A stretch of DNA of 25,881 bases, taken from IMG/VR virus record IMGVR_UViG_3300027573_000025, one strand, 5' to 3'. The notes beneath the pieces are model-generated. The model made no database searches. It was not told the origin of the DNA and saw nothing but the letters and a program-made list of their open reading frames with translations. Every line of letters begins with the position of its first letter. Positions within the stretch are counted from its first letter, which is position 1. This document shows, in pieces, positions 1 to 17,655 of the stretch. Made by a program: the position numbers and the translations under genes. Source of the DNA: an uncultured virus (IMG/VR IMGVR_UViG_3300027573_000025). Its lineage: Duplodnaviria; Heunggongvirae; Uroviricota; Caudoviricetes.

Positions 1-1228
1 TAGGGCAGTCGTAGGCCGTATGGTAATGCGTCGGCTCGTCATTCTCGACGACGGATTTATTGCGCACGCATGACTCCAAGGCGCCTTGGTCCGGTTGAGT
101 ACCGACAAAGCGCCCGGTGCTTCCAGACCAAGTTCCTACTGTTGAGATTTGCGTCCCCGCGTCGATACAAGCAGAGCTATCCGATAAGCTGAAATTTCCA
201 TTGGCGGGGTCAATCATACAACCCGCCGTGGTCCGGTTTGTGGTGATAGTAACATCCGGGTCGGTGCCGCTAATTGCCGTGCCGCCGACTTGGATTATGT
301 TATTGGCGATGAGACACGCCGAGCCGGTGGCACAACCGCTGATGGTGATGCCGGGGACTGCCGAGGCTTCGTAAATCGTGTTGTGAAGCGCCTCGTTTGC
401 CGTACCGTGCATTGTAATCCCGGTCGTGGTGTAATCTGCAACGATATTGTTGTGAGCGGTGTTTTTGTTGGATTGACTACCAAAATATATCCCATCCCGG
501 TGCGTTGCCCCATGAAAATAGCTGTTGCGAATGACATTATTTGTAGGCAAAACGTAAAACTGTATCCCGTGTCCGTCGTAGTCCGTGCACTCAATATGCT
601 CCATGATTGAGTTGTGCCCTGCCCAATAAAGGCAATGCGCCCCCGGCTGGTGGTCGGCTGTGCTCCAGCGGCTTATCTTCCCCCGGCTGATGCGCCAGCC
701 ATTCGCCGAGCTGCTTGGGCCGATTGCCGCGCCGGTGTCCACCGCTTGCCCTGCTGGTGGTCCAAGGCATTCAAAATCCTCAATGACTATGTTGGTCGTT
801 GCCGCGCTTGAAGTGCCATCAAAACAACTCGTGCCGGTGGTGGCGTTGCTCAAATCCCACTTGAGATACTTAAAGGTAACGTTAGACCGCGCCGAGGTGA
901 AAGCAACTCCCTTGACCGCCGTGCCGGTAGGTTGCAGCACCGGCCAACTTGCCTTGGTTGCCAATTCACCCCTGATCGTGATGCCGCTCGTTGGATTGGT
1001 GATCGTTGCGTTGGTGGTATAGGTGCCCGCCTTGACATAGACCTCGTCGCCGCTTGCCGTAGCGCAGGCAACGGCTCTAGCAAACGATCCGTAATTAGGA
1101 GTCGGGTCTGCGGTGCCGTCAATATCCGTGCAAACAGCGGAGTTACTGCCGCCACTCGACGCCCAATAGCGTGTAGCGTTGGCGTCGGTGGTTATCAGCA
1201 ATGCAAGCAGAGCAAGTAGAAGTCTCAT
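1..1228 (-). CDS. Signal-peptide-bearing right-handed beta-helix (pectin-lyase-like) protein, tailspike/depolymerase-like; 3'-partial (>409 aa)
   Basis: Not in the ORF track because it runs off the window; translated by hand. ATG at 1228 preceded by GAGGTG. Begins MRLLLALLALLITTDANA|TRYW, then GDEVYVKAGTY, Asn-ladder repeats (NNVIRNSYFHG, HNNIVAD, HNTIYE, ANNII) and the motif DPANGNFSLSDSSACIDAG...PDQGALE typical of beta-helix C-terminal caps. No stop down to position 2. Confidence 0.88.
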   Translation of the reverse strand, partial: MRLLLALLALLITTDANATRYWASSGGSNSAVCTDIDGTADPTPNYGSFARAVACATASGDEVYVKAGTYTTNATITNPTSGITIRGELATKASWPVLQPTGTAVKGVAFTSARSNVTFKYLKWDLSNATTGTSCFDGTSSAATTNIVIEDFECLGPPAGQAVDTGAAIGPSSSANGWRISRGKISRWSTADHQPGAHCLYWAGHNSIMEHIECTDYDGHGIQFYVLPTNNVIRNSYFHGATHRDGIYFGSQSNKNTAHNNIVADYTTTGITMHGTANEALHNTIYEASAVPGITISGCATGSACLIANNIIQVGGTAISGTDPDVTITTNRTTAGCMIDPANGNFSLSDSSACIDAGTQISTVGTWSGSTGRFVGTQPDQGALESCVRNKSVVENDEPTHYHTAYDCP

Positions 1229-1240
1229 ATTCACCTCACT

Positions 1241-2221
1241 TTATTGAAAGATAATCGGCGCAATGGGCCGAGCCGTTGAGTACACCGGAGTTTTGATTGC
1301 GTACCACCAGTATTTGACGCCTGCGCTTTGCACGTTGGCGTTTAAGCCTATCGTGAAGCCGGTGGCCGTGAAGCTCTGGATAAAGTCCGTGTTGCACGCC
1401 ACGTTTGTCATAGGACACGCGAAATCGCCAGTCATGGCGGAAGTGCGAAAGATGCCGACTCCGGCGTTGGTGTCGCTCTTGACGATGACGAGATCGGGCT
1501 GAAAGCCCACGGTGATTGCCAGCCCATCTGATGGTGAGCCACCAGCGGTGTATGTGCCCGATGTTGCGTAGCCGCCTACATCCTTGATGGCAAGCGGATA
1601 ATAATCCACCGTGCCGCCCGTGCCGTCGTTGACGCGCACTGTGGTTCCAACCTCGAAGCCGTCGGCGTTGAATGCTTGAATATGATTGGTTACAACGCCT
1701 GCCGCTGTAAACAGCAAAGCCGCATCCCCCGCCATCGCACTTAAACGCCAAGCATTAGAGTCGTCGGCTTCACTAGCGATGATAACCGCGCCGGGTAGAA
1801 ACGCCGGGCTTATGACAATATCCCTGTCATCTACGCTATTGCCGACATAGGTTCCCACCGCCAGATCATTATTGGCGTCGGTACCCCAGGCAACATAAAA
1901 GCAGTTGTCGGTGCCGCTGACATTGGTTGTTGAACTCCCTCCGACTTGGAATGTCCCAGTACCAAGTGACTGAATCTTGTTGGTGGTGATGCCGCCGCCA
2001 CCGCCTAGGTCATCGGCACCGTCGCCCGCAATGGACGACGTTTTCATCGTTGCGTGCGTTGCGCCGTTGCACTTTATGATGATGGCGGATATGGCAAACG
2101 AGGCGGCAGTGGAGATATTTCGGTCGTCGGCTCCGTTGCCGCTAAACATGCCGACCTCGAAGCGAAAGGCATGGACGGGTGTGGCGAGTAACAGCGTTAA
2201 AAGTATGGCGAGTAGTTTCAT
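1241..2221 (-). CDS. Signal-peptide-bearing phage fibre-tip-like protein with ~3 internal beta-repeats (326 aa)
   Basis: Begins MKLLAILLTLLLATPVHA|F. Repeated units (GMFSGNGADDRNIS / GTYVGNSVDDRDIV / GTYTAGGSPSDGLAITVGFQPDLVIVKS; KIQSLGTGTFQVG / HIQAFNADGFEVG / FIQSFTATGFTIG) resemble repeats common in environmental phage tail proteins. Confidence 0.75.
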   Translation of the reverse strand: MKLLAILLTLLLATPVHAFRFEVGMFSGNGADDRNISTAASFAISAIIIKCNGATHATMKTSSIAGDGADDLGGGGGITTNKIQSLGTGTFQVGGSSTTNVSGTDNCFYVAWGTDANNDLAVGTYVGNSVDDRDIVISPAFLPGAVIIASEADDSNAWRLSAMAGDAALLFTAAGVVTNHIQAFNADGFEVGTTVRVNDGTGGTVDYYPLAIKDVGGYATSGTYTAGGSPSDGLAITVGFQPDLVIVKSDTNAGVGIFRTSAMTGDFACPMTNVACNTDFIQSFTATGFTIGLNANVQSAGVKYWWYAIKTPVYSTARPIAPIIFQ

Positions 2222-2224
2222 GGC

Positions 2225-4018
2225 TTAATCCGAAAGTGAAGTCACGGAATATTCCATCGTAAACCCAAGGTGGTGCAGCGTAGCCGCCGCCGTGGTCGGG
2301 TTAGCCGTGGCGTCGTACTGCCAGCGAAACTGTAGCAGGCGCGACGTGCCCGCCGTGCAAGTGCCGTTGGGCGTCACGGCTGCGGAGGTGGTCATGTCGA
2401 TGGCGTTACTGCCAGTCACCGCTGCGTCGTCTATCGCTATCTCGGTCCCCCAAGTGTTGTTGATGGTGGCGGTCGCCAGTCGGCACGATGCCGCTATGTC
2501 GCCAAACATCGAGCCGGTATCGGCGGCTGTCTGGACGTAATGGTGAGTAAAGGTCACTGTGCCGCCATCCCACGACTTTCCCATGACCGCCTCGCCGTAG
2601 ATGGATGAAGCATCGTTCTCTGTGCAGATAATGGTATAGCGCGGAGCACCGCTGTTGATGGTCGCTAAGGCTGGCGACGCGCATTGCGCCGTGTCCGTGG
2701 TCAGCGATGCCGCCGGGAAGTACACGGTCTTGGTCGGCTTATATGCCGTCCCGAATGTATACTTACCGAGTTGCGATGCCGCGTCTGGGTCGATGGTCAG
2801 TATTGCCGCCGCCCCTTCGGTGTCGTAAAAGCCGCAGACTTGGTTAGTCATGCAAGTAAAGTAACGGTCTGCCGCGACGCTCGGCTCTATCACCATCTGG
2901 TTTGCGTCGGTAACGTAGACATTGATATAGACGGTGCCATTGCCGAATTGGCAGGGGTCGGCTTCGGTGCATTTGGTGGTTGCATTGCCGTTAGTCATTA
3001 CGCTTTCGAGGGTCTGCGATGAGCCGCTTACCCCTGAGAGTGCCAAGTCCCATGAACCACCACCGGCATTCCATACGCAACGGTTACGATATGTCCCGCC
3101 GCCAGTTTCACAGTCGGTTGTTGCCAGCGCGTCGGTAACGGTGACTTCTTGTCCGTCGACAGGCGTAGCGGGTAGCGTTGCCACGGTGACAAGCGGGGGT
3201 ATCCAGCCCGCCGCCGCTAGTGCGCTTGACGTGGTAGCCGTCGCCGCATTGCCGCTTACGTTGCCGGTCACGTTGCCGGTCAGCGCCGCCGTAATGGTGC
3301 CTGCAGCAAAGTTGCCGCTGGCATCCCTGGCGACAAGCTGGCTTGCTGTGTTGGTGGTGGTGGCGCCATGAGCGCCGGTGCCGGTAAGCGCACTATGCGT
3401 ATTCATTTCCACCTGAGTCGTTACATCGAAGCATCCCTCGACAGCGCCCGCGGCGTCCACACCGAGGGGAGCATTGCCGGCGCTACAGTTAACGCCATTA
3501 GCCGCCAATGCCGGCACTGTGGTAATGGCTTGCCAGCTATTGTCACCGCGTAGGTAATTGGTGGCGTCCGGTGTGCCCGAGCCTAGCCGTGCTGCCGCTG
3601 CGGTGCCGGTGGTAAGTTGTGAAGCGTTTAACGCAGTCAGCCCGGCGCCGCTGCCCGTTGGCGCCACATAGTCTGTGCCTGCTGCTGCGATGGACTGGAC
3701 GCCGGTGCCGGTCTGGTTCTTGACGATGCCGGTGGCAAGTACGCTCATGGCTTGCTCATTGTCCAGCCCGGCATCGGGGGTCTGAGTAATGTAAGTCGCC
3801 GTTGTTGGTGATCCTGAGCCGCTGGTATCTACGTCCACCCATGCCGCCGAGCGGTAAATGTAAAGGTGCCCCGAGGTGCGCCCGCTTACCGTGGTGGTCT
3901 GAGTGCAGACATCGCCTTCCTCTGGTCCTACCACCGTGCCGCAGTCGGTGCGCGTGTAGTAGGTGGCAAAGGCCGGTGAGGCGATAAGTAAACAGAGAAA
4001 GATTAAGAGTTTCTTCAT
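2225..4018 (-). CDS. Signal-peptide-bearing tail-fibre-like protein (597 aa)
   Basis: Begins MKKLLIFLCLLIASPAFA|T. Thr/Ala/Gly-rich, with fibre-shaft motifs ARLGSGTPDATNYLRGDNSW and NTASQLVARDASGNFAAGTITAALTGNVTGNVSGNAATAT. ATGA-coupled to the gp16-like gene, at the usual tail-fibre position. Confidence 0.8.
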   Translation of the reverse strand: MKKLLIFLCLLIASPAFATYYTRTDCGTVVGPEEGDVCTQTTTVSGRTSGHLYIYRSAAWVDVDTSGSGSPTTATYITQTPDAGLDNEQAMSVLATGIVKNQTGTGVQSIAAAGTDYVAPTGSGAGLTALNASQLTTGTAAAARLGSGTPDATNYLRGDNSWQAITTVPALAANGVNCSAGNAPLGVDAAGAVEGCFDVTTQVEMNTHSALTGTGAHGATTTNTASQLVARDASGNFAAGTITAALTGNVTGNVSGNAATATTSSALAAAGWIPPLVTVATLPATPVDGQEVTVTDALATTDCETGGGTYRNRCVWNAGGGSWDLALSGVSGSSQTLESVMTNGNATTKCTEADPCQFGNGTVYINVYVTDANQMVIEPSVAADRYFTCMTNQVCGFYDTEGAAAILTIDPDAASQLGKYTFGTAYKPTKTVYFPAASLTTDTAQCASPALATINSGAPRYTIICTENDASSIYGEAVMGKSWDGGTVTFTHHYVQTAADTGSMFGDIAASCRLATATINNTWGTEIAIDDAAVTGSNAIDMTTSAAVTPNGTCTAGTSRLLQFRWQYDATANPTTAAATLHHLGFTMEYSVTSLSD

Positions 4019-7000
4019 TGTGGTGCCTCCGGAGCACTCTTTGCTGGTTCATTGGCAAACTTCCGCAACGTCAACTCCTCGTCGCGCCCCAAGCCAGAAT
4101 CGTAAATCCCATACTTCATGAGATTCTCGCGTTGTTGCGGCAATAGAGAATCCAAAAGCCCTATGGAGCCAGTCACGTCAGCCTCGACTACGGCGCGTTG
4201 TTCAGGTTGCAACATCGGCAAGTATTTACCCGCACTTGACATAGCTACCTTCTTTGCTAATTCAACATTTTCGACCAGTAAAGCATTCTTTGCCAATGTC
4301 CTACTCTTTGCCAAGTAATTCATAAATGCTTCGCGCTTGAACGCTTCGGTGCCGTCTTTGTATTCGGGCCTGTCAAGTAATTGTTTCTGAATCCCGCCAT
4401 TCACGTCGCGTACCAGATTGCGATAAATCACAATCCAGCGGTCGCGCTGTTCTGGCGTCAACTCCACTGGCACAGCTTCGCCCGGCAATGCAGTTCTCAA
4501 GTCGAAGTCATCGCGCACATTGCCGCCGCCGGTCGACCACGGAAACGCCGGCATTTTGATTTGCAGCCTGTCGCCTTCGAGTTTAATCGGGTCTGTCTCC
4601 CCAGGCTTTAGGACAAACGGATTGCCGATATTGTTAAGTCCAGCCAGGAAGTCGCCGCCGATTGCCATATTCTTTCTAAGCCACTCCGAGCCTACCGCTT
4701 GCGGCACCAGTATGGGATCGCCGTAGCCGTCGCGCAGATAAGGCATCTGTTTGGAATAGCCGAACACCCTGGCGAATGGCCCCTTGCGAATGCCGTCGAT
4801 AAAGCTACGCGATTCGCGCCGCACCGGGTCAAGTTCGCGCTCAATTGCCAGCCCTAATGGCCCACCAGTAGCAATGGCAGTAAAAGGTGAAGCGAGCAAT
4901 TCAGCGCCGATTCGACTGATAGACTCACCACTGCGCCAAGTGCCAATGAGTTCCGAAATCTTACCGGCATTCTGCCACCATGTATTAGAGAGAACATCGC
5001 GGGATACCACCAGACTTATAGCCGTGGCTGTCTGTTCCAGCGTCATGTCATCAAGCTGATTGGCAATCTCCGCGAAGTCTGCGTACATCTCTAGCGGCGT
5101 TGTGCCAGGCTCCGCTGTGTTAGCGAAAGAGTATTGAGTACCATCGGCAGAATGAAAACTATATGGTTGCTTGGCTGCTAAGTATGAACGCCGCATCTGC
5201 GGGTCGGTTGGCCCGCCGCCTGTACCTAGTCCGGTCTGAAATAGCGGGAAAAAGAATTGTCCAAACATATTCGCCAAGGTGAGCCGCGCAACCGCCATGT
5301 CAGCCCGTGTGCCACCGGCTAGAATGTCCTCGTACAGACTACGGCTTGCCATCTGTAGCCCAGGTGTGCGGTTCCAGCCCCATTTGACCAAGTTCATGCC
5401 GCTTTTAACAAACGGGAAATAAGCCGCAAGCGGCCCCCACTGCAATAATCTCTGCGCTGCTTTACCGAATGTTCCTAACTCATTCTGAAAAGTTGCATGA
5501 TTGGCAATGTCAATGGCGCGTTCTTGGTTCTCCAAGGTCGGCATGATACGCCTGCGCGTAACGTAGTCGATATACTGTTTAGACCCTGGCTTGTAACCAA
5601 GGTGCGCCGCATCACGAAACGCCGATGCCCACACCTCACCGTTGTATGCTAGCGCCTTACCGAAGGCGTCCAAGCCACGGACGTTATCAGAGCCGAAGTT
5701 GATTGCTCTGCCGAATGCGCCGCCTATCTGGTGAATCGGGAAATCCAAGCGCCCTTGTGCCTGTGAATTGACTTTGAAAGCGTCGAGATAAGCCTTGGAT
5801 GCTTCAGCCATCGCCATACGATGGCCCATCATAAAGGCAAAGCCTTCGCCTTGCACAAGCCCCTTCTTGTCACTGAGCGTAAAGAATCCACCGACTTCTT
5901 TTTCAAGCACGTTTGCCACCGACCACATACTGTTGCCGATAGCTTGGCGCGTCCAAGTCACCGGACGAAGTAGCAATAGCCCGGAGAATCCTTCTCTAAA
6001 TTTCTGCCATCCGGTCGCGCCTGCTTTCACGGCATCGGCGCCGATTACTTGCAGAGTTTCCAGCTTGCCCGGCTCATTAGCTAAAGCCATAACATCTTCA
6101 GCCATTGTCTGTGCGGCTGCGGTTCTGTCCATCTTCGCCATTGCTTCAGAATCCCAATGACGGAGCATTTCATTGATAGCTTTATTTGCCGGCGCCTGGT
6201 CGAAGTATTTCACCACACGCCCGCCCGTGACGTTGGTAGTGCGCATTTGAGTTGTCAAACTGAACATGTCGAGGGTATCGGTCAGAAACTTATCGACCGT
6301 TTCCGGCTTGGTAGGGTCGAACGCTTTTGTAGTGGCAACCCATTGGCCTACCGGCGTTGCCGCTTTGTTAGCAGTCCCGAGGGCTTGCAAATAAGCCACT
6401 ACATCGTCATCGTTTATGCGTTTACCAGGGAATAATGCGCGAATGTCATCCGGCGTAAGCCCTAACTTCTCGGCTTCCTTTGTCGCCATGGCAAAGGATT
6501 TCGTTTCCGTTATGCCTTCGAGTTTCTTCTTGATTGCGTTGAACTCATCCCAAAATGTCTTGGGAATGTCCGATGCTGGCGGGAGTTTCAACGCATCGGT
6601 GGACACGCCCGGCAATGCCACACCGTCAGCCGCGAGTCCCTGCTTGATTGCATCGTCGGCTAGTTTCTCGGCTTGCGCTAACTTCGCTGCTTCATCGGCT
6701 GCCGCCGCCGCTGCTTTAGCCGCCGTCTTAGCTTCCTTTGCCGCGCCTATGGCTTGTACGCCTTTAGCAAACGACTTCGCCATAGTGCCGACTGGAACGA
6801 AGCCGCTGCCTACATCGGTTGCAATGCCTATCACGGTTGCTAGTCCCTGCGGCGCCCCGGCATCAAGCGCCCAATGCTTTGCTACCGCCCCGTTTACTTC
6901 GCCGAATGCTGTCAGCGGCGCCAACATCAATTGAATCTCACGCCACATTAAACGAAACGGTAAAGCCAGATTCTTGCCAACGCTTTTCTCGGGATCGTGC

Positions 7001-7224
7001 TTGCTGGCAAGGTCGACAAACTCGTTCCAGTTTTCAGTGACATGCTTGATGGTTTGCGTGAAATAGGTTTTCAACATGCCCTGCTCGCCAATGAGTTCGT
7101 CAAGATTCATGGCGGCAAGCCGGCGCATCTTATCGTTACGTTCGCCCACGGTAATGTACTTCTGCCGATAGGCGTCGTTGATGTCCTCTGGCGTAGGACG
7201 GTCCTGCTTTTGTAATTGTGGCAT
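4015..7224 (-). CDS. Large internal virion/ejection protein (T7 gp16-like position; 1069 aa)
   Basis: Large, predominantly helical, Cys-free protein. Motifs HATFQNELG...YFPFVKSGMNLVKWGWNRTPG and LRDGYGDPI resemble podovirus large ejection proteins. Last of three ejection-type genes. Confidence 0.72.
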   Translation of the reverse strand: MPQLQKQDRPTPEDINDAYRQKYITVGERNDKMRRLAAMNLDELIGEQGMLKTYFTQTIKHVTENWNEFVDLASKHDPEKSVGKNLALPFRLMWREIQLMLAPLTAFGEVNGAVAKHWALDAGAPQGLATVIGIATDVGSGFVPVGTMAKSFAKGVQAIGAAKEAKTAAKAAAAAADEAAKLAQAEKLADDAIKQGLAADGVALPGVSTDALKLPPASDIPKTFWDEFNAIKKKLEGITETKSFAMATKEAEKLGLTPDDIRALFPGKRINDDDVVAYLQALGTANKAATPVGQWVATTKAFDPTKPETVDKFLTDTLDMFSLTTQMRTTNVTGGRVVKYFDQAPANKAINEMLRHWDSEAMAKMDRTAAAQTMAEDVMALANEPGKLETLQVIGADAVKAGATGWQKFREGFSGLLLLRPVTWTRQAIGNSMWSVANVLEKEVGGFFTLSDKKGLVQGEGFAFMMGHRMAMAEASKAYLDAFKVNSQAQGRLDFPIHQIGGAFGRAINFGSDNVRGLDAFGKALAYNGEVWASAFRDAAHLGYKPGSKQYIDYVTRRRIMPTLENQERAIDIANHATFQNELGTFGKAAQRLLQWGPLAAYFPFVKSGMNLVKWGWNRTPGLQMASRSLYEDILAGGTRADMAVARLTLANMFGQFFFPLFQTGLGTGGGPTDPQMRRSYLAAKQPYSFHSADGTQYSFANTAEPGTTPLEMYADFAEIANQLDDMTLEQTATAISLVVSRDVLSNTWWQNAGKISELIGTWRSGESISRIGAELLASPFTAIATGGPLGLAIERELDPVRRESRSFIDGIRKGPFARVFGYSKQMPYLRDGYGDPILVPQAVGSEWLRKNMAIGGDFLAGLNNIGNPFVLKPGETDPIKLEGDRLQIKMPAFPWSTGGGNVRDDFDLRTALPGEAVPVELTPEQRDRWIVIYRNLVRDVNGGIQKQLLDRPEYKDGTEAFKREAFMNYLAKSRTLAKNALLVENVELAKKVAMSSAGKYLPMLQPEQRAVVEADVTGSIGLLDSLLPQQRENLMKYGIYDSGLGRDEELTLRKFANEPAKSAPEAPQ

Positions 7225-8609
7225 TAGAAGTCTTTCACCTTCTTCATCTTGTCAGGCGTTGACTGAGCCTTTTCGGTAATGCCCCTCTTGAATGTCTCAA
7301 GTTTCTTTTCCGCCGCCTGTTTGCCATCCTTGCGGTAAATCGACTCAATCTGAGCCTTCTCATGGACTGCCATGTTTCCCATTATCGAATTGACTATCGG
7401 GTTACTCTGCACCCAAGCGTCGTACTCGGTCTTGAGGTGAGAGATTTGTCTGTTGTCGGCGGCTATTGCGTTGGCTTGACGTGCAATACCTTGGTTCTCC
7501 AATGTGGTCCTATCGCTCTGTAATTCATCCTTGTACTTGAGAATCCATTTGTTAGGCGCACCGAGTTCCTTGGAGAGTCTATTCAGCTTTGCCAGTGCTC
7601 TATCAAGTGCCGTAAAGTTACGCCCGCCCGCGGTGTACTCATCCCATATGGCATCTGCCGCCGCGAGTCTGCCGCTGTCGCCGCTTCCTTCGTTGACTTC
7701 CTTGAGTGTTCTCGCTTCGGATGGACGGACCAGCGGGTTATTGCCAGCCAGCGCATCATTGAGCCATACCGGGTCGAGTTTGCTGAAGTTAGCCGCCGAA
7801 TAAGCTGCGTCGTACACCAGCTTCTTATTCTTGTTGGTAATGCTGTCGGTGCGGGATTCCTCTTTTTGAATCTCGGTTCTCGCCTTGCTTTCAATTTCAA
7901 GTATGCGTGCGTTGCCTAATGGCGCCAGCCGATTCTTGATTCTGTCATCGGTGAATATTCCTTGAGGGTTTCCCCGCGTTACCAGCGTTGCATATTCTTC
8001 CAATGCCTGAACATTGAACTTCGTCATTTCCTGTTCAGCTTGCTTCGGGCTTAATGTCGGCGGTACTGGTCTGCCGGCAACCATCGTCGGTGTTGACGCG
8101 GTATTGATGGTTGCTTGGAATATCCGCCGCGCCGCGTCTTGTTCCATCGGGTCGTCTGTTTCGGCAACACGCCGGGATAACATAGTGCGCAGGGTTTCAA
8201 TGTCGGCCACTTGTTTTCCATGCGCGGCTTGTACTTGAAGCCCGGAAACACGCCTGACGTTCTCGCCGAAGCGCCGGTCAGCGTGAAGATTGAATACGTC
8301 TTGAGTATCTTTATCGGTGTAACGCGCCCCTAAAGTCTGACGGATGTCCTTGTCTTTTTGAATTATCTCATCCCGCCAGGTATTAAGGTCGGCATTTGCC
8401 GGTAGTGCGTTGATGGCATCGTCCATCAAAATGTCGTACTCACTTGACGCCTTGGCGGCATCAATGGGCTTCTGCCGCGCCAACGCGGTATCGGCAAGTT
8501 GCGCAATGGTATGAAACACCCCCGCCCCAAAGTCCTGCGGCGTAGTCCTAGCCAATGGCCCGGAGAACGGGATATTAGGAGAGGCAAACAGCCTCGGCAA
8601 ATCAGCCAT
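7224..8609 (-). CDS. Internal virion/ejection protein (T7 gp15-like position; 461 aa)
   Basis: Helical, charged, Cys-free; N-terminus MADLPRLF...TTPQDFGAG; synteny directly before the large ejection protein (TAATG coupling). Confidence 0.62.
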   Translation of the reverse strand: MADLPRLFASPNIPFSGPLARTTPQDFGAGVFHTIAQLADTALARQKPIDAAKASSEYDILMDDAINALPANADLNTWRDEIIQKDKDIRQTLGARYTDKDTQDVFNLHADRRFGENVRRVSGLQVQAAHGKQVADIETLRTMLSRRVAETDDPMEQDAARRIFQATINTASTPTMVAGRPVPPTLSPKQAEQEMTKFNVQALEEYATLVTRGNPQGIFTDDRIKNRLAPLGNARILEIESKARTEIQKEESRTDSITNKNKKLVYDAAYSAANFSKLDPVWLNDALAGNNPLVRPSEARTLKEVNEGSGDSGRLAAADAIWDEYTAGGRNFTALDRALAKLNRLSKELGAPNKWILKYKDELQSDRTTLENQGIARQANAIAADNRQISHLKTEYDAWVQSNPIVNSIMGNMAVHEKAQIESIYRKDGKQAAEKKLETFKRGITEKAQSTPDKMKKVKDF

Positions 8610-9326
8610 TTAGATTGCAACCTCAAATGTCAGAGTACCGCCAGCCGCCGGCGCCTCATCAGTCAAGCCCACGGTGATGTCATTAGCCGTTTGACTGACC
8701 ACCTTAAACGCCGTGTGAAACGTCGAGCTAAAACCGATAATCTTGGCGTTACTGTCGTTGAGTCCATGCGTCACCACCGCCGAGATATCAGCCGGCGCCA
8801 AGACTACATCGACAACGGTATGAGTAATTGCTAAGGCTGAGGCCAGGACATTTGTGACCATATCCTCATCGGTATTCCAGCGCAGTATCTGCCCGGCTGC
8901 GGGGTCGGAAACGGTAATGTCGATACTCGTTGACGTGGTAGGGAAGTGGAGCGCCTTACGCGCCAGATAGGTCAATTCCTGGGCAAACATGGTAAGCCGG
9001 TCAAAGACTTCCTCGAATACCGATGATGGTATCGGCGCCCCTTCTTCAAGGTGGACAAGCTGAGTAAGCGCGGTCTGCCGGGTGAGAAACAACTCGGTGC
9101 CGCTTGCCAAGGCTGTAGCCAGGACTATCTGCCCACCGGCGCTGTTATTCACATACGCCGCGGCGATGGTGTAGTCAGTATCGAGTACCAACGTGGTCGG
9201 TGTCCCGCCGATAACTAATGTTTCAACCAGCATGTCGGCTTTCCTGAGTATGCGAAACGTGAAAGCGTAGTTGGTCAGTAAGCCGGTGCCGGTGTAGTGG
9301 TCTGGTGTGAAAGCAGACTGGATCAT
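8610..9326 (-). CDS. Short tail-fibre adaptor protein with T7 gp17-like N-terminal attachment domain (238 aa)
   Basis: Start reassigned to ATG 9326 (ATGA overlap with upstream stop). YTGTGLLTNYAFTFRIL...LVLDTDYTI...LTRQTALTQ...FEEVFDRLTMFAQEL matches the T7-type tail-fibre N-terminal domain pattern. Confidence 0.82.
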   Translation of the reverse strand: MIQSAFTPDHYTGTGLLTNYAFTFRILRKADMLVETLVIGGTPTTLVLDTDYTIAAAYVNNSAGGQIVLATALASGTELFLTRQTALTQLVHLEEGAPIPSSVFEEVFDRLTMFAQELTYLARKALHFPTTSTSIDITVSDPAAGQILRWNTDEDMVTNVLASALAITHTVVDVVLAPADISAVVTHGLNDSNAKIIGFSSTFHTAFKVVSQTANDITVGLTDEAPAAGGTLTFEVAI

Positions 9327-9994
9327 GCTAGTAACCTCGCTCCCCCGCTTTTCAATGACGGCGCTGCGGCCCCGATAATGCCGCTCCAAAGGTCAGCCTC
9401 GCCCCGCCGGCGTGCCAATCTTTCCTGCTCTTTGTAACTGGCGGCGCCTATCTCCCCTTGGTAATACTCCATTTGCGATGCAATAGCCGAGTTGCGCACA
9501 CTGTCTAGATAGACCAGCATGGGCGAGCCTGAGAATGTGGTGCCCTGCGCTCCCGCCTGAGCGCGTATCTCGCCGAGTTGAGCGCGTCCAACGGCATCTT
9601 TGATGTTCTTGTTCGCCGCGCCAACCATCCTGCTTTGCCGAGCCGCCTCTTTATTATAGGCGGCATTGGTATTGCCGGAAGCGTAGCCGCTTACGCCTTG
9701 GAGTAGAGTTGCTCCCTGTTGCAGATATTGGAGCGTCTGGCCTGCGGTAAGACCAGATGCCCCTGTTTGTGCCGCCGCTGCTGCCTGCGCTGATTCAACA
9801 GCGGCCTGCGTTCCTACTCCCTCCGCCACCGTTGCTGCTCCCCATGATTCTGCTAATGCGCCAGCCCCCACCTCCGAAGCCGCTGCGGCCCCGCCACCTT
9901 GAGCAAACATAGCCGCAAGCCATTCATGGCATTGATGCCGCGTGCCTAGCTGGATGGCGTCGGACATCGAGTTATCGAGTAAGTCGAAATTCAT
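9323..9994 (-). CDS. Small internal virion/ejection protein (T7 gp14-like; 223 aa)
   Basis: Ala/Gly/Gln-rich, with AQLGEIRAQAGAQGTTFSGSP motif and amphipathic C-terminus; follows the GNAT gene as in T7-like phages. Confidence 0.72.
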   Translation of the reverse strand: MNFDLLDNSMSDAIQLGTRHQCHEWLAAMFAQGGGAAAASEVGAGALAESWGAATVAEGVGTQAAVESAQAAAAAQTGASGLTAGQTLQYLQQGATLLQGVSGYASGNTNAAYNKEAARQSRMVGAANKNIKDAVGRAQLGEIRAQAGAQGTTFSGSPMLVYLDSVRNSAIASQMEYYQGEIGAASYKEQERLARRRGEADLWSGIIGAAAPSLKSGGARLLA

Positions 9995-10440
9995 TGCGCC
10001 CTCACCATCAATTTCATATCCGGCGTAAGTTTCTTAAACACTTCGGGATATTTGCATTCATCCGGTTTCACATACTTAAAACCTAGCGCCACAAGCCACC
10101 GCTCATTCTCGGGCTTGCAAGCGGCATAGACCTCATCGAGCTTTACCGAGTGCTTGTCGAGTAACTGCTTTACTAGCCGGTGCATGGTCAGCGGGTAAAC
10201 GCGCCTGAGTAACGGCGTGAAGTAAGTCCATGCCTCACCTATCCCTGGACGCTGCACCGACAAGCCCGCGGCGCCTATCGCCATGCCGTGCAGGTAAACG
10301 GTGTAGCCGGGACCGCTTTCCTGCGCCCGCCATGCCATGCGGTACAGCTCCTCGTCGGCATCGGGCACGATGTCGAATAAATGAGCGGCGCGGAATGGTA
10401 TCAGTTGGAGCTTCGTAAAATCACCTTTGTCGTTCTGCAA
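9991..10440 (-). CDS. GNAT-fold acetyltransferase-like virion assembly protein (T7 gp13-like position); start uncertain (TTG 10440 or ACG 10416)
   Basis: LIPFRAAHL, AIGAAGL...GIGEAW and ERWLVALGF motifs; synteny between the nozzle and the gp14-like gene. Confidence 0.75.
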   Translation of the reverse strand: MQNDKGDFTKLQLIPFRAAHLFDIVPDADEELYRMAWRAQESGPGYTVYLHGMAIGAAGLSVQRPGIGEAWTYFTPLLRRVYPLTMHRLVKQLLDKHSVKLDEVYAACKPENERWLVALGFKYVKPDECKYPEVFKKLTPDMKLMVRAQ

Positions 10441-11591: not shown

Positions 11592-14500
11592 CTACACCTT
11601 CTTGAACATCAGCATGTGCGAGTCTTGGTGCACCACCAAGGGAGTCGCGTTGGTCACGTTCTGCGCCACTTGGAACGTCAAGTTGCCGGCGTTGGCGCCG
11701 TTACGCACCGTGAAGTGGAACACGCCGGAGGTATCGAAACCCGCCGATACCGAGTAAACGAGTTCAGTCGATAAATCGTAAGCTAGGTAGCCATAAGAGG
11801 CGTCGAACCATTTGCCCTCTGCCAACGCAGGACCGACAAACGTAAACTTCATATCGGGGGTCGCGCTAGCGCATTCGTAGCGCAAGACTACATGCCCGAC
11901 GTAGGTGGCGTTGGCTTCCATCAACAGCGACATATCGGTGTCGGTCAGCGTGTCGTTGGTCAGGTTCAAGTCTGCGGCTTGGTTTGCAATCATGGCTTCC
12001 TCTTCTACTGGCGGGGTTATTGTTCCGGCATCGACTATCTGGATAGCGGCTACGCATTCATTGGCAATGGAAATATCGGTGTCAAGCACGATCCAGGTAA
12101 TGATCGGCACGCCATTGACCGATATGGTGTAACTGTCGGCGTTGGTATCGCTCGCCTCTATCCTGAGAATATCGCCCTGCACCAAGGTTGCCGCCACTGA
12201 GGTCAGCACCGTGCCGATGGCGGTAAGCGGCTGGTTCTGGTACAGCACCAAGGCAATCACGTTCTGGTCCGGTAAGTACAATGCCGCCAAGCCTGTGAAT
12301 GCCAGCTCGTCAGCCGTAGTCGTTACCCGGATAGCGATACCCGCCGCCTCGGTGCCGTCGTCATACATCATCTGAGCAAACTGCCCGAACGGGCAAGTAT
12401 GCCCGCATTCCCGCGAGAAGCTGCCGAATACCGCAGCGTTGTTGTCCGTAGCGTTATCGCCAAAGCCGGGATTCTCGTCCACCGTTTCACAGCACCATTC
12501 CGTGCCTATCTCCAGGTCGCCGACGATATTCATCACCTCTGCCGGGAATGGCAAAGTCTGTTTGAATGACACCCGACAGAATGGATTGTAATTAGTCTGC
12601 TCGGTACATAATTTACCCTCTTGGAGCGGGATAGCCGCGTCCATGGGGTGATCGGGTCTGAGTATCGGCAAGCCGACATTGGCGCTGTCGTCCACGTTGA
12701 GAGTCAGCCCTGGTCCCGCCCTGCGCACGCGCATACCTAGCGCCTTCCAGCGCCGGCACATAAACATGCCGCCCTGCTCAGGCGGTATCAGCGGCTCGCA
12801 TGTCAGCCCTTCGGACTCGTAGGCAAGCCCGTACTCCACCTGACCTACGGTAATGGCAGGCTCAAGGGTAAATTGCCCGCCGGTCACTACGGCATCGCTG
12901 AATAGCATACCGTCGCCAACGACTTTAACCGTGGCGCCCTCTAGGTGGCCGGCGCCGGTAACAACCAGGCTGGTATTAGGGACCGCCACCACCGCGCAGT
13001 CAGTCTGAAGGCTGTGCCACTCACGATTAAGGTCGGCATCCGGTTCCATGTGTTCGATGAAAGTCTCGGTCACGCCGTTAATGTCCCGCTCGATACTGGC
13101 CCAAAGCCAGTCCTTGCCGCTGGAGGGTCGGGGTATGCAGGCAACGCTGGTCACTTCGCCGGTAGTCGGGTGAGTCGACCATGCAATGACGTTCTCGTCC
13201 TCTTGGTAGGTCAGCGCCAAAAGCATTCCATCGTCGCGCACTAGCCAAACAATCGAGTCGGGTTCCTGTTGGAATGCCGCGTCCATCAGGGAGTTATCTT
13301 CGGTCAGGTGCTCGGCTAAGGTAAGAAGCGAAGGCGACTTGAACTTGTCGGTTACGAAATCAAAGACCAGCTCCCTGATTTTCTTCTGTCCAAACTGCAC
13401 ATGAATAAGCTGCCCGCCGATACGGATAGGCGGGATGTTGGCGCTACCTCTGCTTGAGATAGGCAACACCGTGAAGTCTGAAGGTGATAGCGCCTTGCCA
13501 GGGGTCGATGCCGTTACCTCATACGCGCTGCCGCCGGTGCCTACTTGGAGCGAGCGCACCGCCTTAATCCAACGGATAGGGTTTACCTGGTCGTCGTCAA
13601 TGGTGCGCTGGATAGCATCGTCGGCATTGGCGCCCTTTGAGAAGTTCTCGAAGTCGCCGCTTACGCTGCCGTTGATAGTCTGTCCCTTGCACAGCCACAT
13701 ACGCGACTGGAAGAAGCAGCCGCACACCGGATAACCGAGCACGTCGCTCCATGCTTCGACCTCGATGCCCCATACCGTCGTGCTTGGCGGGTCGCCATAC
13801 GGTAAGCCGCTGGCCGGATCGTTAGGCACGTCAATAAGCGTATTCAGGATGACGCCGTTCATCTTGGCGCCATTGATATAGGCGGTGAGCTTTATCAGCC
13901 CGCCGTATATCGTCATGTACTTGTTGACATCGGACGGACGGAAAATGTTAGCGCCGGCGTCTAGTCCCACGCCTTGCCCGGCAAGCCGATTGGTAGGGTC
14001 TACGGCTATGGCGCCAAAGCCCTCGAAGTGCCATTCGTCCTGGGCTATCGACGTGCCGATAAAGTCGCTGACAACATCGGCGACGAGGATATTGGCGGAA
14101 GTAAAGGCGGTAATGACAGCCCTGCCGGCGGCGCTTACCAGTGTGCGCCCAACATCGCCGTTAAGCCAACATGCGTTAGCCGCCGTGATGGTGATACCGT
14201 CGCCGGTTACAGCCGAGAGCGTCAAGGTGGCGCTGTTAAGTTCGGTGCCGGTAGGCGAGTCGAGACTGGTTGCCGGCGGGTTAAACGATACCGCGCTTAA
14301 AGTGAACTCATCAGGCGAGACCGCTATTCTGGCGAGCTTCTGCACCGGGTAAATGCCGGTGCAGAGATACATGACATCGGCGCTTTGAAAGCTGCCTATC
14401 TTGATAAGGTCCAGGTCGGCAATGCCGAACGGGGTCACTAGCTCATGGGGAATTGCCGGGTTAACCGGGTCCATGAGCGGAACGCCGTCTTTGAAGAATC

Positions 14501-14780
14501 GCACATAGAAGTCGCCGAACTCAAGCATGTAAGCTTGAGTTGACGAGAAGCGGAAGTCTATCAGCCTGACATCGGCATTCTCCAGCCCGCTATATTTAGC
14601 CTTGGCGCTATAGGCAAACCCTTCACGCCGCTTGACACCGCCCATGGTAACGGGGAGCCAGTTTCGAAGGATACGGCAAGCCGACGAATACTTCTCGGTC
14701 TTGTCCTGGCGTGCCTCGAAACGCGGGGAGACTTCGCCGACATTGAGCGCAAAGTTAATTCTGGAGACATTGAACGCCAT
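11592..14780 (-). CDS. Tail tubular protein B / nozzle (T7 gp12-like) with ~300-aa C-terminal extension (1062 aa)
   Basis: NFALNVGEVSPRFEARQD, MGGVKRREGF, YMLEFGDFYVRF, QSADVMY, GYPVCGCFFQSRMW, IRELVFDF, FQQEPDSIVWLVRDDG and AWSTH motifs characteristic of podovirus nozzle proteins. Confidence 0.88.
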   Translation of the reverse strand: MAFNVSRINFALNVGEVSPRFEARQDKTEKYSSACRILRNWLPVTMGGVKRREGFAYSAKAKYSGLENADVRLIDFRFSSTQAYMLEFGDFYVRFFKDGVPLMDPVNPAIPHELVTPFGIADLDLIKIGSFQSADVMYLCTGIYPVQKLARIAVSPDEFTLSAVSFNPPATSLDSPTGTELNSATLTLSAVTGDGITITAANACWLNGDVGRTLVSAAGRAVITAFTSANILVADVVSDFIGTSIAQDEWHFEGFGAIAVDPTNRLAGQGVGLDAGANIFRPSDVNKYMTIYGGLIKLTAYINGAKMNGVILNTLIDVPNDPASGLPYGDPPSTTVWGIEVEAWSDVLGYPVCGCFFQSRMWLCKGQTINGSVSGDFENFSKGANADDAIQRTIDDDQVNPIRWIKAVRSLQVGTGGSAYEVTASTPGKALSPSDFTVLPISSRGSANIPPIRIGGQLIHVQFGQKKIRELVFDFVTDKFKSPSLLTLAEHLTEDNSLMDAAFQQEPDSIVWLVRDDGMLLALTYQEDENVIAWSTHPTTGEVTSVACIPRPSSGKDWLWASIERDINGVTETFIEHMEPDADLNREWHSLQTDCAVVAVPNTSLVVTGAGHLEGATVKVVGDGMLFSDAVVTGGQFTLEPAITVGQVEYGLAYESEGLTCEPLIPPEQGGMFMCRRWKALGMRVRRAGPGLTLNVDDSANVGLPILRPDHPMDAAIPLQEGKLCTEQTNYNPFCRVSFKQTLPFPAEVMNIVGDLEIGTEWCCETVDENPGFGDNATDNNAAVFGSFSRECGHTCPFGQFAQMMYDDGTEAAGIAIRVTTTADELAFTGLAALYLPDQNVIALVLYQNQPLTAIGTVLTSVAATLVQGDILRIEASDTNADSYTISVNGVPIITWIVLDTDISIANECVAAIQIVDAGTITPPVEEEAMIANQAADLNLTNDTLTDTDMSLLMEANATYVGHVVLRYECASATPDMKFTFVGPALAEGKWFDASYGYLAYDLSTELVYSVSAGFDTSGVFHFTVRNGANAGNLTFQVAQNVTNATPLVVHQDSHMLMFKKV

Positions 14781-15394
14781 CAGTAATTGCCATAACCACC
14801 ATTCCGCACGTCGATAAAGTCAGTCGATACCTCTATCTCGCGGTTCCCTTCGCCCTCGTCCACGCCCACGGCTTCATCAAACTCACGGTAGGCGTCCATC
14901 AGGAACTTCTCGGCTAGTTTCACGTCCTTGCCGAATGAGGCGGCAAGCCGTGACGCTAGAAGCGCCGCGCACGCATTGAATAGCAGCCGGTCCCACCTAT
15001 TCACGTCGGTAATGTTGGCTTGGTAGATAATGGCGGCGTTCTCCAAGTGGCAGTACAGAACGCGCTTGCCTTCGCTGTCCACTTCCCAGGAAAAGACATG
15101 GCGCTGATTAGTATACGGGAAACAGATAAGCCGGCGCACCGCTAGGCAGTCCGATGGTGTGCGGTAGGCGTAGGTCCACTCCCCGAGGCTTTCGTTGTTG
15201 GCGGTAAGCGATAAGGTCGCCCGGCGCCGCGCACAATTCCAGTCGCGCATTCTTAGGACTTGCTCCTTGGTATTTGCCAAGTGCGCGTTGATTGCCACCA
15301 CCGTCTTGTTGTTTAATGAGGTCAGCAGCGACGGCACGGAGTCTTGTCCGATAAGTGCCAGGGCCTGATTAGCTAGGTCGGTGTCTGTGCTCAT
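14780..15394 (-). CDS. Tail tubular protein A / adaptor (T7 gp11-like; 204 aa)
   Basis: DLANQALALIG, VLRMRDWNCARRRATL, WTYAYRTPSDCL and ALLASRLA motifs; directly upstream of tubular B. Confidence 0.88.
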   Translation of the reverse strand: MSTDTDLANQALALIGQDSVPSLLTSLNNKTVVAINAHLANTKEQVLRMRDWNCARRRATLSLTANNESLGEWTYAYRTPSDCLAVRRLICFPYTNQRHVFSWEVDSEGKRVLYCHLENAAIIYQANITDVNRWDRLLFNACAALLASRLAASFGKDVKLAEKFLMDAYREFDEAVGVDEGEGNREIEVSTDFIDVRNGGYGNY

Positions 15395-16524
15395 ATAATT
15401 ACCTTAATCGGTGCGCCGCCGGTGGTTAGAACATGGATTTGCTTTGCACTGGAAATGACAACCTTGACCGTGGTGCCGCTGTCGGTAAGCACCGTGCAGG
15501 CAATGCCATTCGGCGCTATTAAGACTTCAACTTCATCGCCGTCGGATATGGCGAACGGTCCCTGCAAGATGGCGTCAGCGCCGGTGATGGTGTAAGTGCC
15601 AGGTTCAAGGTTGAGAGCGCGACCTACCAAAGCCGTTAAATCGGCTCCGGTAATGGCATAAGTGCCGGCTTCCAAGTCAAGCGTCCGGCCCGCTATAGGC
15701 GTTAAGACTGTGCCGGTGACGGTGTAACTGCCAGCCTCTAATTCAAGCGTCCTAGCCGCCAGCGTCGTTAAGTCAGCTCCAGTGACAACGTAGGTGCCAG
15801 CCTCAAGGTTGAGATCGTAGGCGGTCGGCGTGCCGCTGTGATCCAGTGTGGCTTCCGCGCCACTAAGAACATAACTCCCCGCTTCAAGGTCGAGCGAGTA
15901 AGCGTTGATTGCCGGCTTATCCGGCCTAAACATCGTCGGTGGACGATAGGCAATGCGAATCTTCGAGTACGGGTTAGGCCAGTCGTGTTGTAGAAACGGC
16001 TTCTGTTTTTCCGGCAGTCGTACCGTGTAGCCGTAAGCCGCAAAGTTTAACGGTCGAGGGTTTGGATTAGGCCAGTCGGTTTTGGCGAATGGCGCCAGTG
16101 TTACGGGAACGTAGACGGTCGTTAAGTCGGCACCAGTTAGGGCGTAACTGCCGGCTTCGAGGTTTAGCGACCGAGCAGCCAGCGGTGTGAGATCGGCGCC
16201 CGTAGTGGCGTAAGTGCCAGCTTCGAGATTCAGGCTGCGAGCGGCTAACGAGGTGAGATCAGCGCCGGTTATCGCATACGATCCCGCTTCAAGGTTAAGT
16301 GAATGAGCAACTGCGGGTTTAAGGGTTGTCGCATTGAGATTCGGGATGGGCTGGGCAAGGATCGCCGCCATCGCCGACGTAGCAATAATTTTGGTGACTA
16401 GGGGAATACGCCTAACTTGAACGCCTGGAGCGCCGTATGTTTTACCTAAAAGATTCTGGACCCATCCAATTTCATTGGCCTGGTTGTATCTTTTCGGTGG
16501 CGGTCGGTAAGAGTTGAATGGCAT
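15391..16524 (-). CDS. Repeat-containing fibre/scaffold-like structural protein (377 aa)
   Basis: Start reassigned to ATG 16524, just after the upstream TAA. Eight ~22-aa repeats LxLEAG(S/T)YxxTGADL and two PFxxxDWPNP motifs. Confidence 0.7.
   Translation of the reverse strand: MPFNSYRPPPKRYNQANEIGWVQNLLGKTYGAPGVQVRRIPLVTKIIATSAMAAILAQPIPNLNATTLKPAVAHSLNLEAGSYAITGADLTSLAARSLNLEAGTYATTGADLTPLAARSLNLEAGSYALTGADLTTVYVPVTLAPFAKTDWPNPNPRPLNFAAYGYTVRLPEKQKPFLQHDWPNPYSKIRIAYRPPTMFRPDKPAINAYSLDLEAGSYVLSGAEATLDHSGTPTAYDLNLEAGTYVVTGADLTTLAARTLELEAGSYTVTGTVLTPIAGRTLDLEAGTYAITGADLTALVGRALNLEPGTYTITGADAILQGPFAISDGDEVEVLIAPNGIACTVLTDSGTTVKVVISSAKQIHVLTTGGAPIKVII
15557..16302 (-). repeat. Degenerate 66-nt (22-aa) coding tandem repeats, in clusters of 3 and 5 units
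   Basis: SLNLEAGSYAITGADLTSLAAR / SLNLEAGTYATTGADLTPLAAR / SLNLEAGSYALTGADLTTVYVP, then five more (SLDLEAG, DLNLEAG, TLELEAG, TLDLEAG, ALNLEPG). Confidence 0.9.
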
Positions 16525-16525
16525 C

Positions 16526-17248: not shown

Positions 17249-17251
17249 AGT

Positions 17252-17572
17252 TTATCTTAATTTGTTGAACGCCTGTAAAATCGCCGCCTTGACGTTGCTG
17301 ACACTTGAATCAGTATCGAGTTTGCTTTGCACGGATAACAGTTCGTTGAATGCTTCATGCGCAATCGTATCAGTCGGAAAGCCGTATTGAATTCTAATTT
17401 CGGCATAGTGCGCATCAGCAGAACCATCGCCATCAATCATCAATTGCATGTTGGCGATTTCGTTGTTTAGTCCATCGGTTCCGTAAAGAGCCGAATTTAG
17501 ATTTCCCATGATGTTATTGAGCCGAATCGAACGAGACTTACTTGGATCGTGTGGTAAATATGTGAATGCCAT
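17252..17572 (-). CDS. Hypothetical helical protein (106 aa)
   Basis: Strong RBS (AGGAGG) upstream of ATG; fills the gap to the LamG gene; no recognisable motif. Confidence 0.75.
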   Translation of the reverse strand: MAFTYLPHDPSKSRSIRLNNIMGNLNSALYGTDGLNNEIANMQLMIDGDGSADAHYAEIRIQYGFPTDTIAHEAFNELLSVQSKLDTDSSVSNVKAAILQAFNKLR

Positions 17573-17580
17573 GTGCCCTC

Positions 17581-17655
17581 CTACTGTGCTTTGATAATCA
17601 AATTAGTTGGGGATGATGGCGCCGCCCCTGCGACGAAAGGGACTTCATTGTTCAT
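17581..17655 (-). pseudogene. 24-aa mini-ORF, possibly a C-terminal remnant of a fibronectin-III-type gene
   Basis: Hand translation MNNEVPFVAGAAPSSPTNLIIKAQ*; TGATG-coupled to the upstream gene; resembles the SNEV...PxxPTNL pattern at FN3 domain boundaries. Confidence 0.4.

Follow-up and report, generated by a model that had tools for sequence, protein, structure and literature searches.

The 25,881-nt stretch of DNA analysed here, hereafter the window, belongs to an uncultured virus of the class Caudoviricetes (IMG/VR record IMGVR_UViG_3300027573_000025). PHROG and Pfam scans show its content to be the late module of a T7-like podovirus, and all of its genes lie on the minus strand. The last three genes of the late operon, here named A, B and C, are tightly packed between the gene for the last internal virion protein (gp16-like) and the lysis cassette, which is the site of the fibre gene in T7. 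The fibres of T7 and P22 fold and assemble in the cytoplasm and have no signal peptide. However, the initial annotation of this DNA had claimed that three consecutive genes at the fibre position start with Sec leaders, and the N-termini, the start sites and rule-based calls all bear this out. The nearest virus record, G001, is a linear contig of 33.8 kb that is rated 78% complete. Past the left edge of the window it holds the missing part of gene C, genes for two small membrane proteins, for a lipobox protein and for a Hydrolase_2-type endolysin, and also early genes on the opposite strand.

Leaders, cysteines and folds of A, B and C

Gene A (2225-4018, minus) encodes a leader-bearing fibre of 597 aa composed of the leader, an N-terminal domain with two Cys, a shaft and a beta-sandwich tip. 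Its predicted Sec signal peptide (residues 1-18, MKKLLIFLCLLIASPAFA; 3965-4018, minus) is called by rule, with cleavage before T19, so that the mature protein would begin TYYTR. A GGAGG lies 7 nt upstream of the ATG, and the ATG overlaps the stop codon of the gp16-like gene as ATGA, an arrangement that suggests translational coupling. Gene B (1241-2221, minus; 326 aa) has its ATG 3 nt past the stop of A and begins with the leader MKLLAILLTLLLATPVHA (2168-2221) followed by FRFEV and three tandem repeats (DUF7483). Gene C (2-1228, minus) is cut by the window edge, leaving the first ~409 of 699 residues: the leader MRLLLALLALLITTDANA (1175-1228) followed by TRYWA, and then a right-handed beta-helix. 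The full gene is present in G001 and in the protein collection. Translation begins at the ATG at 1228, which is preceded by GAGGTG, and not at the GTG at 1234.

A leader was called where a 9-residue window with a mean Kyte-Doolittle hydropathy of at least 2.2 starts in residues 2-21, with no net negative charge before that window and with small residues at -3/-1. The rule picked out five of the 33 gene products, namely A, B, C, the open reading frame (ORF) at 21427-21891 and a spanin-like lipoprotein, and none of the other 28. All three fibre-site proteins show the n-, h- and c-region build of a signal peptide, with MKK, LLIFLCLLIAS and PAFA before the T in A, MK, LLAILLTLLLAT and PVHA before the F in B, and MR, LLLALLALLITT and DANA before the T in C. 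The Cys of a lipobox is absent at +1 (T, F and T in A, B and C), whereas the spanin-like ORF downstream has LPGC, and the n-regions contain no twin arginine (RR) of the Tat type. A start-codon artefact was considered for A and rejected: the conserved N-terminal domain lies upstream of the next in-frame Met (~residue 91), and therefore the leader must be translated. We consider it very probable that A, B and C are exported, and the leaders would then be cleaved off. A fourth leader-bearing ORF (21427-21891, minus) begins MKSIVQQYRGGITLLVVLVMYGFAALMMNRPADA followed by QIY, has 4 Cys in its mature part and no PHROG match, and sits between a glycosyltransferase gene and the gene for a coiled-coil protein in the head-proximal late operon.

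That homologues keep the leader was confirmed for A, for C and for the close relatives of B. A has 292 relatives with E<=1e-3, and a leader was called in 81 of 120 among the matches listed; many of the listed relatives without a call are N-terminally cut, or are leaderless fibres with only shaft repeats in common. For C the count is 16 of 18, the other two being N-terminally cut. Leaders were called in 39 of the 73 relatives of B, including the close ones, in which the leader is followed by F-[RN]-F-E-V-G. However, retention does not extend to the distant relatives of B, which start directly with the domain or bear other export devices; in bacteria, actinobacterial-type leaders, pilin-like N-termini and C-terminal domains of the type IX secretion system (T9SS) are found on this same domain. 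Nor does it extend to the cultured pelagiphage HTVC011P, whose gp37 (NC_020482.1) resembles B in its DUF7483 domain and in its site after the gene for internal virion protein D, but is leaderless, as are three neighbours, with 0-4 Cys. Relative to such leaderless pelagiphage DUF7483 proteins, the lineage of B appears from the sequences to have gained a leader and two Cys pairs. Across relatives the leaders drift in sequence, while their hydrophobicity and the A-x-A type site stay.

The mature parts of A, B and C contain 14, 4 and 16 Cys, respectively, those of A spaced as local pairs, and no Cys is present in a leaderless fibre stub encoded at 8610-9326 or in the gp15/16-like proteins. For leader-called relatives that have any Cys, the Cys count is even in 67 of 78 for A, 15 of 16 for C and 18 of 21 for B, compared with 23 of 39 relatives of A without a called leader, although these counts treat related sequences as independent and binomial p-values for them overstate the case. 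Even counts in the mature parts are far more frequent than by chance, a bias expected for disulfide-bonded exported proteins, and disulfides probably form in the mature proteins.

The initial annotation had also described the bodies of the three proteins as fibre- or tailspike-like. This held for the shaft repeats of A, the tail-fibre family of B and the beta-helix of C, but not for the kind of beta-helix, as C is nearest to monomeric PL6 enzymes rather than to a tailspike of the P22 type. One 30-residue stretch of A is 90% identical to cyanomyovirus structural proteins. In sequence searches against cultured phages this 30-residue repeat gave the sole matches of A, to four records, and B and C gave none; against solved structures neither A nor B had a match at E<=1. 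Pfam and PHROG returned no match to a T7 gp17-type anchor in A, B or C. The AlphaFold2 model of A has a mean predicted local distance difference test (pLDDT) score of 70.8, which is high for residues 270-597, moderate for 21-65 and low for the shaft, a pattern that fits a trimeric fibre being modelled as a single chain. The C-terminal part (residues 271-597; 2228-3208, minus) is modelled, mostly at pLDDT 85-98, as beta-rich domains ending in a jelly-roll tip. Foldseek matched this tip to CBM36, CBM6, CBM35 and Eph ligand-binding domains (E 5e-5 to 5e-4, target template modelling (TM) score 0.47-0.64). Among predicted viral structures the fold matches of A were mostly tail fibres, and the tip of Bdellovibrio protein Bd2133 also appeared, weakly (E 1.9e-4, TM 0.11-0.18). 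As modelled, A is a fibre with a jelly-roll tip that may be of the sugar-binding type.

B matches DUF7483 (PF24299) at 28.0 bits against a cut-off of 27, and matches the tail-fibre family phrog_24898 at 1.1e-13. Precomputed assignments place DUF7483 in most of its 73 relatives, and a leaderless relative, P0156, scores 107.8 bits. The repeat consensus defines three tandem beta-sandwich repeats of ~100 residues, and the AlphaFold2 model (pLDDT 89.8, predicted TM score 0.87) arranges them as a pseudo-threefold bundle. Fold matches were weak (best Z 5.9) and included single-chain C1q/TNF-type trimers and the fibre tips of phage AP22 and of R-pyocins; with the best matches at Z <8, assignment of B to a family by fold was dropped. 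We therefore describe B, on its model, as a three-repeat pseudo-trimeric arrangement and claim no family. C matches Pfam Beta_helix at 9.4e-15 and NosD at 4.1e-06, and a profile of 13 homologues retrieved structure 9rx2, PL6 lyases, chondroitinase B, alginate lyases and mannuronan C5-epimerases (E 4e-8 to 4e-4). Two further C-terminal domains are conserved in the family. By sequence profile, C is a PL6-lyase-like right-handed beta-helix that may be enzymatically active.

The leaderless stub and the cassette in other phages

The gene at 8610-9326 (minus) encodes a 238-aa fibre stub, or adaptor, with a T7 gp17-type N-terminal anchor, a small C-terminal domain and no distal fibre. Residues ~9-130 of this leaderless protein match 16 PHROG tail or tail-fibre families (best 4.1e-25). 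At E<=1e-3 it has 13,606 relatives, mostly fibres of 333-1227 aa with only the first ~160 residues in common, and a few relatives of 234-240 aa match it end to end. Therefore, the protein is an anchor that lacks the distal fibre. An alignment of short stubs was used to gather 30 loci, nine with a stub-sized ORF and 21 with a long fibre ORF. Five of the nine are cut by or near a contig end. All four that have 10 kb downstream encode leader-bearing proteins of at least 597 aa there; three of these loci are near-identical relatives of this phage and one, L023, is distinct. Downstream of the 21 long-fibre loci, the leader-called ORFs are only 103-317 aa and most are of the lysis type, a contrast that is rough because the downstream reach of these loci varies from 663 to 10,000 nt. 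In two podovirus contigs, L035 (12502-13365) and L036 (12385-13338), leader-bearing proteins of 287 aa and 317 aa (..AATLSPIQLLNPAG and ..ATTVPPQLISPAG, respectively) are encoded directly after a long leaderless fibre gene.

In L023 the gene for a 234-aa stub and that for an 863-aa leader-bearing fibre overlap by 4 nt, at the start of the latter. The mature N-terminus of this fibre, QYMIRDNCNTL...VC..., is the same domain as that of A (residues 19-65; 3824-3964, minus), which has the motif [TQ]-aromatic-aromatic-x-R-x-D-C ... C. The leader and this N-domain are common to 14 fibres with differing shafts and tips. The leader was called in all 14, C26 never varies, and 13 of them have R23 and D25; on the side of the stub, T205 and P226 are invariant in nine short stubs.

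Binding between A and the stub, which the initial annotation had raised as a possibility, is favoured by complex prediction in addition to the adjacency of stub and fibre genes in L023. Three copies of stub residues 95-238 (9-row alignment) were modelled with three copies of A residues 19-80 (14-row alignment). The complex scored 0.78 (runs 0.81, 0.78 and 0.73) and the best of three controls 0.00, although this docking differed from the calibration of the tool in using its own alignments and three copies of each chain, and the score is a model confidence and not a measurement. In that calibration 116 of 157 solved complexes attained the mark, as did 2 of 215 mismatched pairs. The docking runs agree in at least 90% of contacts, with a partner pLDDT of 73-77. 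Stub residues 179, 181, 203-204, 220, 222-224 and 226 are predicted to meet residues 19-24, 28-30 and 33 of A, so that the contact starts at the first residue past the predicted cleavage site. The C-terminal domain of the stub (residues ~160-238; 8613-8849, minus) would thus be the socket and the mature N-terminal domain of A the plug. A candidate socket motif, LPxY..D..A...GL..G..Y, is found neither in the window nor in seven related loci, pointing to a different plug-socket pair here.

The genes also recur in other phages. Three near-identical IMG/VR contigs carry, in this order, the gp16-like gene, A, B, a gene for a different leader-bearing beta-helix protein and lysis genes. Contig L006 is a siphovirus tail module with a lambda-type tape-measure protein, DUF2460, a phiJL001 gp84-type hub and Phage-tail_3, and between DUF2460 and the hub it has three leader-bearing genes that encode an A-like protein and homologues of B and C. 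The last 352 residues of the A-like protein are 77% identical to the C-terminal part of A (271-597), and the homologues of B and C are 82% and 54% identical, the latter over 98% of the length. The DUF2460 protein directly before this cassette (L006 2264-3169) has an extra C-terminal extension of ~90 residues (..DGVNVTFTLSQDP..). The complete 103-kb phage G002, whose genome has terminal repeats, encodes A-like, B-like and C-like proteins, each with a leader, ahead of the same pair of small membrane proteins.

Scanning 185,579 species genomes with the alignment of A found the family on only two contigs of metagenome-assembled genomes (MAGs), and a scan with the alignment of C found no relative in the same genomes. 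The bins are labelled Alicyclobacillaceae and Dehalococcoidia, labels that we do not trust for the one contig that is phage-like. This 44.9-kb contig encodes, in order, internal-virion-type proteins, three leader-bearing proteins, a lipoprotein and an endolysin, and one of the leader-bearing proteins has the N-terminus of C. The trio stands directly before lysis genes in three lineages. Judged by sequence, the tip of A together with B and C is a mobile cassette that has moved between a podovirus, a siphovirus tail module and a larger phage. In an unrelated phage contig found through the fibre repeat of A (L007, 14286-15884, minus), three consecutive small leader-bearing proteins of 145-225 aa are encoded.

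Proposed assembly in two compartments and its alternatives

We propose a two-piece tail fibre, the parts of which would be made in different compartments of the cell. The leaderless stub would be mounted on the tail in the cytoplasm through its gp17-type anchor. A, B and C would be made late alongside the virion proteins, exported by Sec, freed of their leaders and folded in the periplasm with disulfides. A would become a fibre, presumably a trimer, with a tip of the sugar-binding type, and its freed N-terminus (T19 onward) would plug into the stub, adding a strand to the C-terminal domain there. This would have to await the mixing of cytoplasm and periplasm by the holin lesion or by lysis, so that the particle would gain its distal fibre at or after lysis. 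The same export route may be followed by B, a lectin-like pseudo-trimer, and by C, a PL6-like beta-helix that would cleave polysaccharide; both would either ride on A or act free on the glycan of the host envelope.

The starting points for this proposal are the leaders and their conservation, the Cys pattern, the gene order and the predicted interface, and from them we infer export, cleavage, disulfides, trimerisation, the time of attachment and enzyme activity. The original idea of exported receptor-binding proteins and an atypical assembly route is to this extent supported. That A is the distal piece of a two-compartment fibre, joined to the stub at or after lysis, we regard as moderately probable. 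For the broader proposition, that a widespread group of uncultured podoviruses, siphoviruses and larger phages snaps periplasm-folded, disulfide-bonded, leader-bearing fibres and glycan-cutting proteins onto leaderless stubs of particles built in the cytoplasm, and does so only at holin action or lysis, we see the chances as even. Such a route would be undescribed for Caudoviricetes.

Receptor-binding proteins borne on an adaptor are known from T7-like podoviruses, as in the gp37 adaptor and tailspikes of SP6/K1-5 and the gp37-gp38 pair of KP32. Similar to these, a short gp17-type-anchored protein, the 238-aa stub without a distal domain, is accompanied by separately encoded fibres in A, B and C, here with predicted N-terminal docking. 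However, the partners in SP6/K1-5 and KP32 are leaderless and cytoplasmic, whereas A, B and C have Sec-type leaders and paired Cys; gp37 was compared by description only. A parallel in gene position and leaders is offered by the Cellulophaga phage phi10:1 (NC_021802.1), a cultured siphovirus of a Bacteroidota host, and thus a phage of another type and host phylum. Each of five consecutive proteins of its tail-fibre region (gp091-gp095), among which two are annotated as pectate lyases and another as a tail fibre, starts with a leader, and none of nine other tested proteins (virion, tail and neighbouring genes) does. The GenBank record, which is silent on leaders, marks gp091-gp094 as structural, "based on experimental MS/MS proteomics analysis", and this detection by tandem mass spectrometry (MS/MS), known from the record's annotation, could reflect co-purifying secreted proteins.

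Further leader-bearing proteins of tailed phages include T5 Llp and lambda Lom and Bor. These, like Lys44, the signal-arrest-release (SAR) endolysins and T4 RI, take the Sec route of the host, and some lie beside receptor-binding genes, but their roles are in lysis, exclusion or conversion; no fibre or spike is among them, and none is regarded as a tail component. In passages of a review of phage enzymes that breach the envelope, signal peptides are mentioned only for endolysins (Lys44 of fOg44 and SAR endolysins) and for T4 RI (PMC6116005). A full-text literature search, with most subscription journals outside its reach, returned no account of signal peptides on tailed-phage fibres or spikes.

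Bacteria provide two comparisons. The MAT fibres of Bdellovibrio bacteriovorus (Bd2133 and 20 others) are described as signal-peptide-bearing trimers that resemble phage tail fibres and fold after export, and Bd2133 made with a PelB leader formed fibres (PMC10769870). Periplasmic folding of phage-like trimeric fibres is therefore feasible. Like A, these fibres combine a signal peptide with a conserved N-terminal anchoring domain and swappable tips; by description they differ in being encoded and displayed by the cell and in having a beta-rich N-domain of ~130 aa directly behind the signal peptide, compared with ~45 aa in A, which is encoded in a phage late operon. WceF of Pantoea stewartii is an exported tailspike-like beta-helix that acts on exopolysaccharide, and periplasmic depolymerases are cited in the same text (PMC7949094). 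In contrast to C, which has a Sec-type leader, is a phage gene product and is nearest to monomeric PL6 enzymes, WceF is described as a trimer from a bacterial gene with a Tat signal.

The three proteins could also be exported and never join the virion, acting instead as late accessory proteins, either periplasmic or displayed on the infected cell, a possibility that we hold to be real but less probable. There they would bind and cut host surface polysaccharide, with the effect of releasing progeny, keeping virions from sticking to debris or blocking superinfection, in the manner of receptor-destroying enzymes or of T5 Llp. Several findings count in favour of this possibility and against a place on the particle. 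The profile of C resembles secreted or periplasmic monomeric bacterial enzymes (PL6 lyases and mannuronan epimerases) and not trimeric tailspikes; B and C show no attachment domain; and full-length B and C are common to the siphovirus L006, which has no such stub, so that they may never sit on a particle. Movement of the cassette among the podovirus, L006 and G002 fits a tool for host glycan that is independent of particle architecture. Its position directly before lysis genes and the bacterial precedents of WceF and the depolymerases cited with it also count for export without attachment. Furthermore, the phage encodes leaderless candidate receptor-binding proteins (a pectate-lyase-like, a LamG-type and a repeat protein). 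The two-compartment fibre is also weakened by a domain like the N-domain that recurs inside A (275-317) and in the A-like protein of L006, which means that the motif is not specific to a plug, and by the leader calls being rule-based in an uncultured phage known here from its sequence alone. Nevertheless, a stub without a distal part needs a partner, the stub gene and the leader-bearing fibre gene appear translationally coupled in L023, and the predicted complex passes with its contact at the mature N-terminus of A. A conserved N-domain with variable tips is the usual build of particle-borne fibres, and leader-bearing proteins of phi10:1 are marked as found in virions. Known exclusion proteins act early, and the late, probably gp16-coupled expression of A fits structural amounts better. 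Export without attachment is strongest for B and C, and for these two alone it may hold.

A quite different possibility is that the hydrophobic N-termini are not working export signals, and that assembly takes place in the cytoplasm or at the inner face of the membrane with this segment as a helix for docking or trimerisation, or as a tether to the membrane. All known fibres of tailed phages assemble in the cytoplasm, the export of the three proteins is deduced from their sequences, and the three leaders are alike in length and build, as a shared docking peptide would be. We nevertheless consider this improbable, given the full n/h/c build with small residues at -3/-1, the drift of leader sequences while hydrophobicity and cleavage motif stay, and the even, locally paired Cys in the mature parts, which point to oxidative folding. 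In addition, distant bacterial relatives of B bear other export devices on the same domain, and the predicted interface uses residues past the leader and not the leader itself.

A similarly low probability attaches to a moron or host-derived cassette of MAT-like cell-surface adhesins that would benefit the lysogen or the infected cell and have no role in the phage cycle. Leader, conserved N-domain, shaft and variable tips do amount to the MAT architecture, the Bd2133 tip was among the weak fold matches of A, the cassette is mobile, and a GC skew of opposite sign at 1-4000 hints at recent arrival. However, the initial view of these as phage genes was upheld by their tight packing between the gp16-like gene and the lysis cassette, with the start of A overlapping the stop of a virion gene, and by the lack of signals that would set them apart: scans found promoter-like sites (4 against 4.2 expected) and terminator-like sites (9 against 7.8 expected) at chance level. 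No integrase was seen in the 10.5 kb past the window, nor was there a family match to one in the complete 103-kb relative G002, and across the species genomes scanned the family of A was confined to the two MAG contigs mentioned above, one of them phage-like. The link to the stub also argues for a role in the virion.

If the distal fibres do mature in the periplasm, the view as taught, that particles of tailed phages are built wholly in the cytoplasm, would be challenged. Receptor-binding proteins stabilised by disulfides would become possible, the last assembly step would be tied to lysis, and, before the cell releases its phages, these fibre proteins could attack the envelope from inside. 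To predict host range or engineer phages, one would then need to treat such fibres as secreted proteins and consider the leader, oxidative folding and stub compatibility, and pipelines for annotation or virion proteomics would overlook the receptor-binding proteins if they rule out leader-bearing ORFs as non-structural. The pair of stub and plug is a directly testable interface, and the cultured Cellulophaga phages offer a bench system.

Remaining late genes and smaller observations

The rest of the window, all on the minus strand, encodes the major capsid protein (24879-25844; phrog_3437, 3.2e-38), tail tubular protein A (14780-15394; phrog_394, 4.4e-31), tail tubular protein B (11592-14780; phrog_376, 2.5e-140), internal virion proteins identified by PHROG and Pfam scans (9991-10440 and 9323-9994), a large protein at the gp15 position (7224-8609) and the gp16-like large internal virion protein (4015-7224), whose role is assigned from size and position as its single Pfam match is weak. 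Judged by tubular protein B, the nearest cultured relatives of the phage are podophages of Pelagibacter, Ralstonia, Stenotrophomonas and Burkholderia, at only ~30% identity.

Between the capsid gene and that of tail tubular protein A, where T7 has none, lies a block of leaderless candidate appendage genes (15391-20457, minus). It includes a pectate-lyase-like protein (19246-20457; PF00544, 7.5e-15), a phrog_2804 virion protein (18662-19246), a LamG-type protein (16526-17248) and a repeat protein built of LNLEAGSY.(I/V/L)TGADLT units (15391-16602), whose gene contains a 66-nt tandem repeat at 16141-16266. The pectate-lyase-like, LamG-type and repeat proteins are the leaderless candidates for receptor binding.

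A glycosyltransferase (phrog_1962, 3.3e-23) and an S-adenosylmethionine (SAM) methyltransferase (Methyltransf_12/23/25) are encoded within the structural operon at 21888-23125 (minus), between the capsid and tail genes, and a similar methyltransferase lies upstream of tail tubular A in L023. These enzymes may modify virion proteins or glycans. On the plus strand the GC skew is positive over positions 1-4000 (+0.005 to +0.097) and mostly negative elsewhere despite the single coding strand, and the GC content reaches 0.62 in 3001-4000. The skew of this segment is compatible with recent acquisition of a cassette and equally with the Gly/Thr/Ala-rich make-up of the encoded proteins. Finally, the early genes of the nearest record include one for an ArdC-like anti-restriction protein (L002 1606-2517, plus) with ArdcN and zincin peptidase domains (phrog_7245, 3.5e-75).

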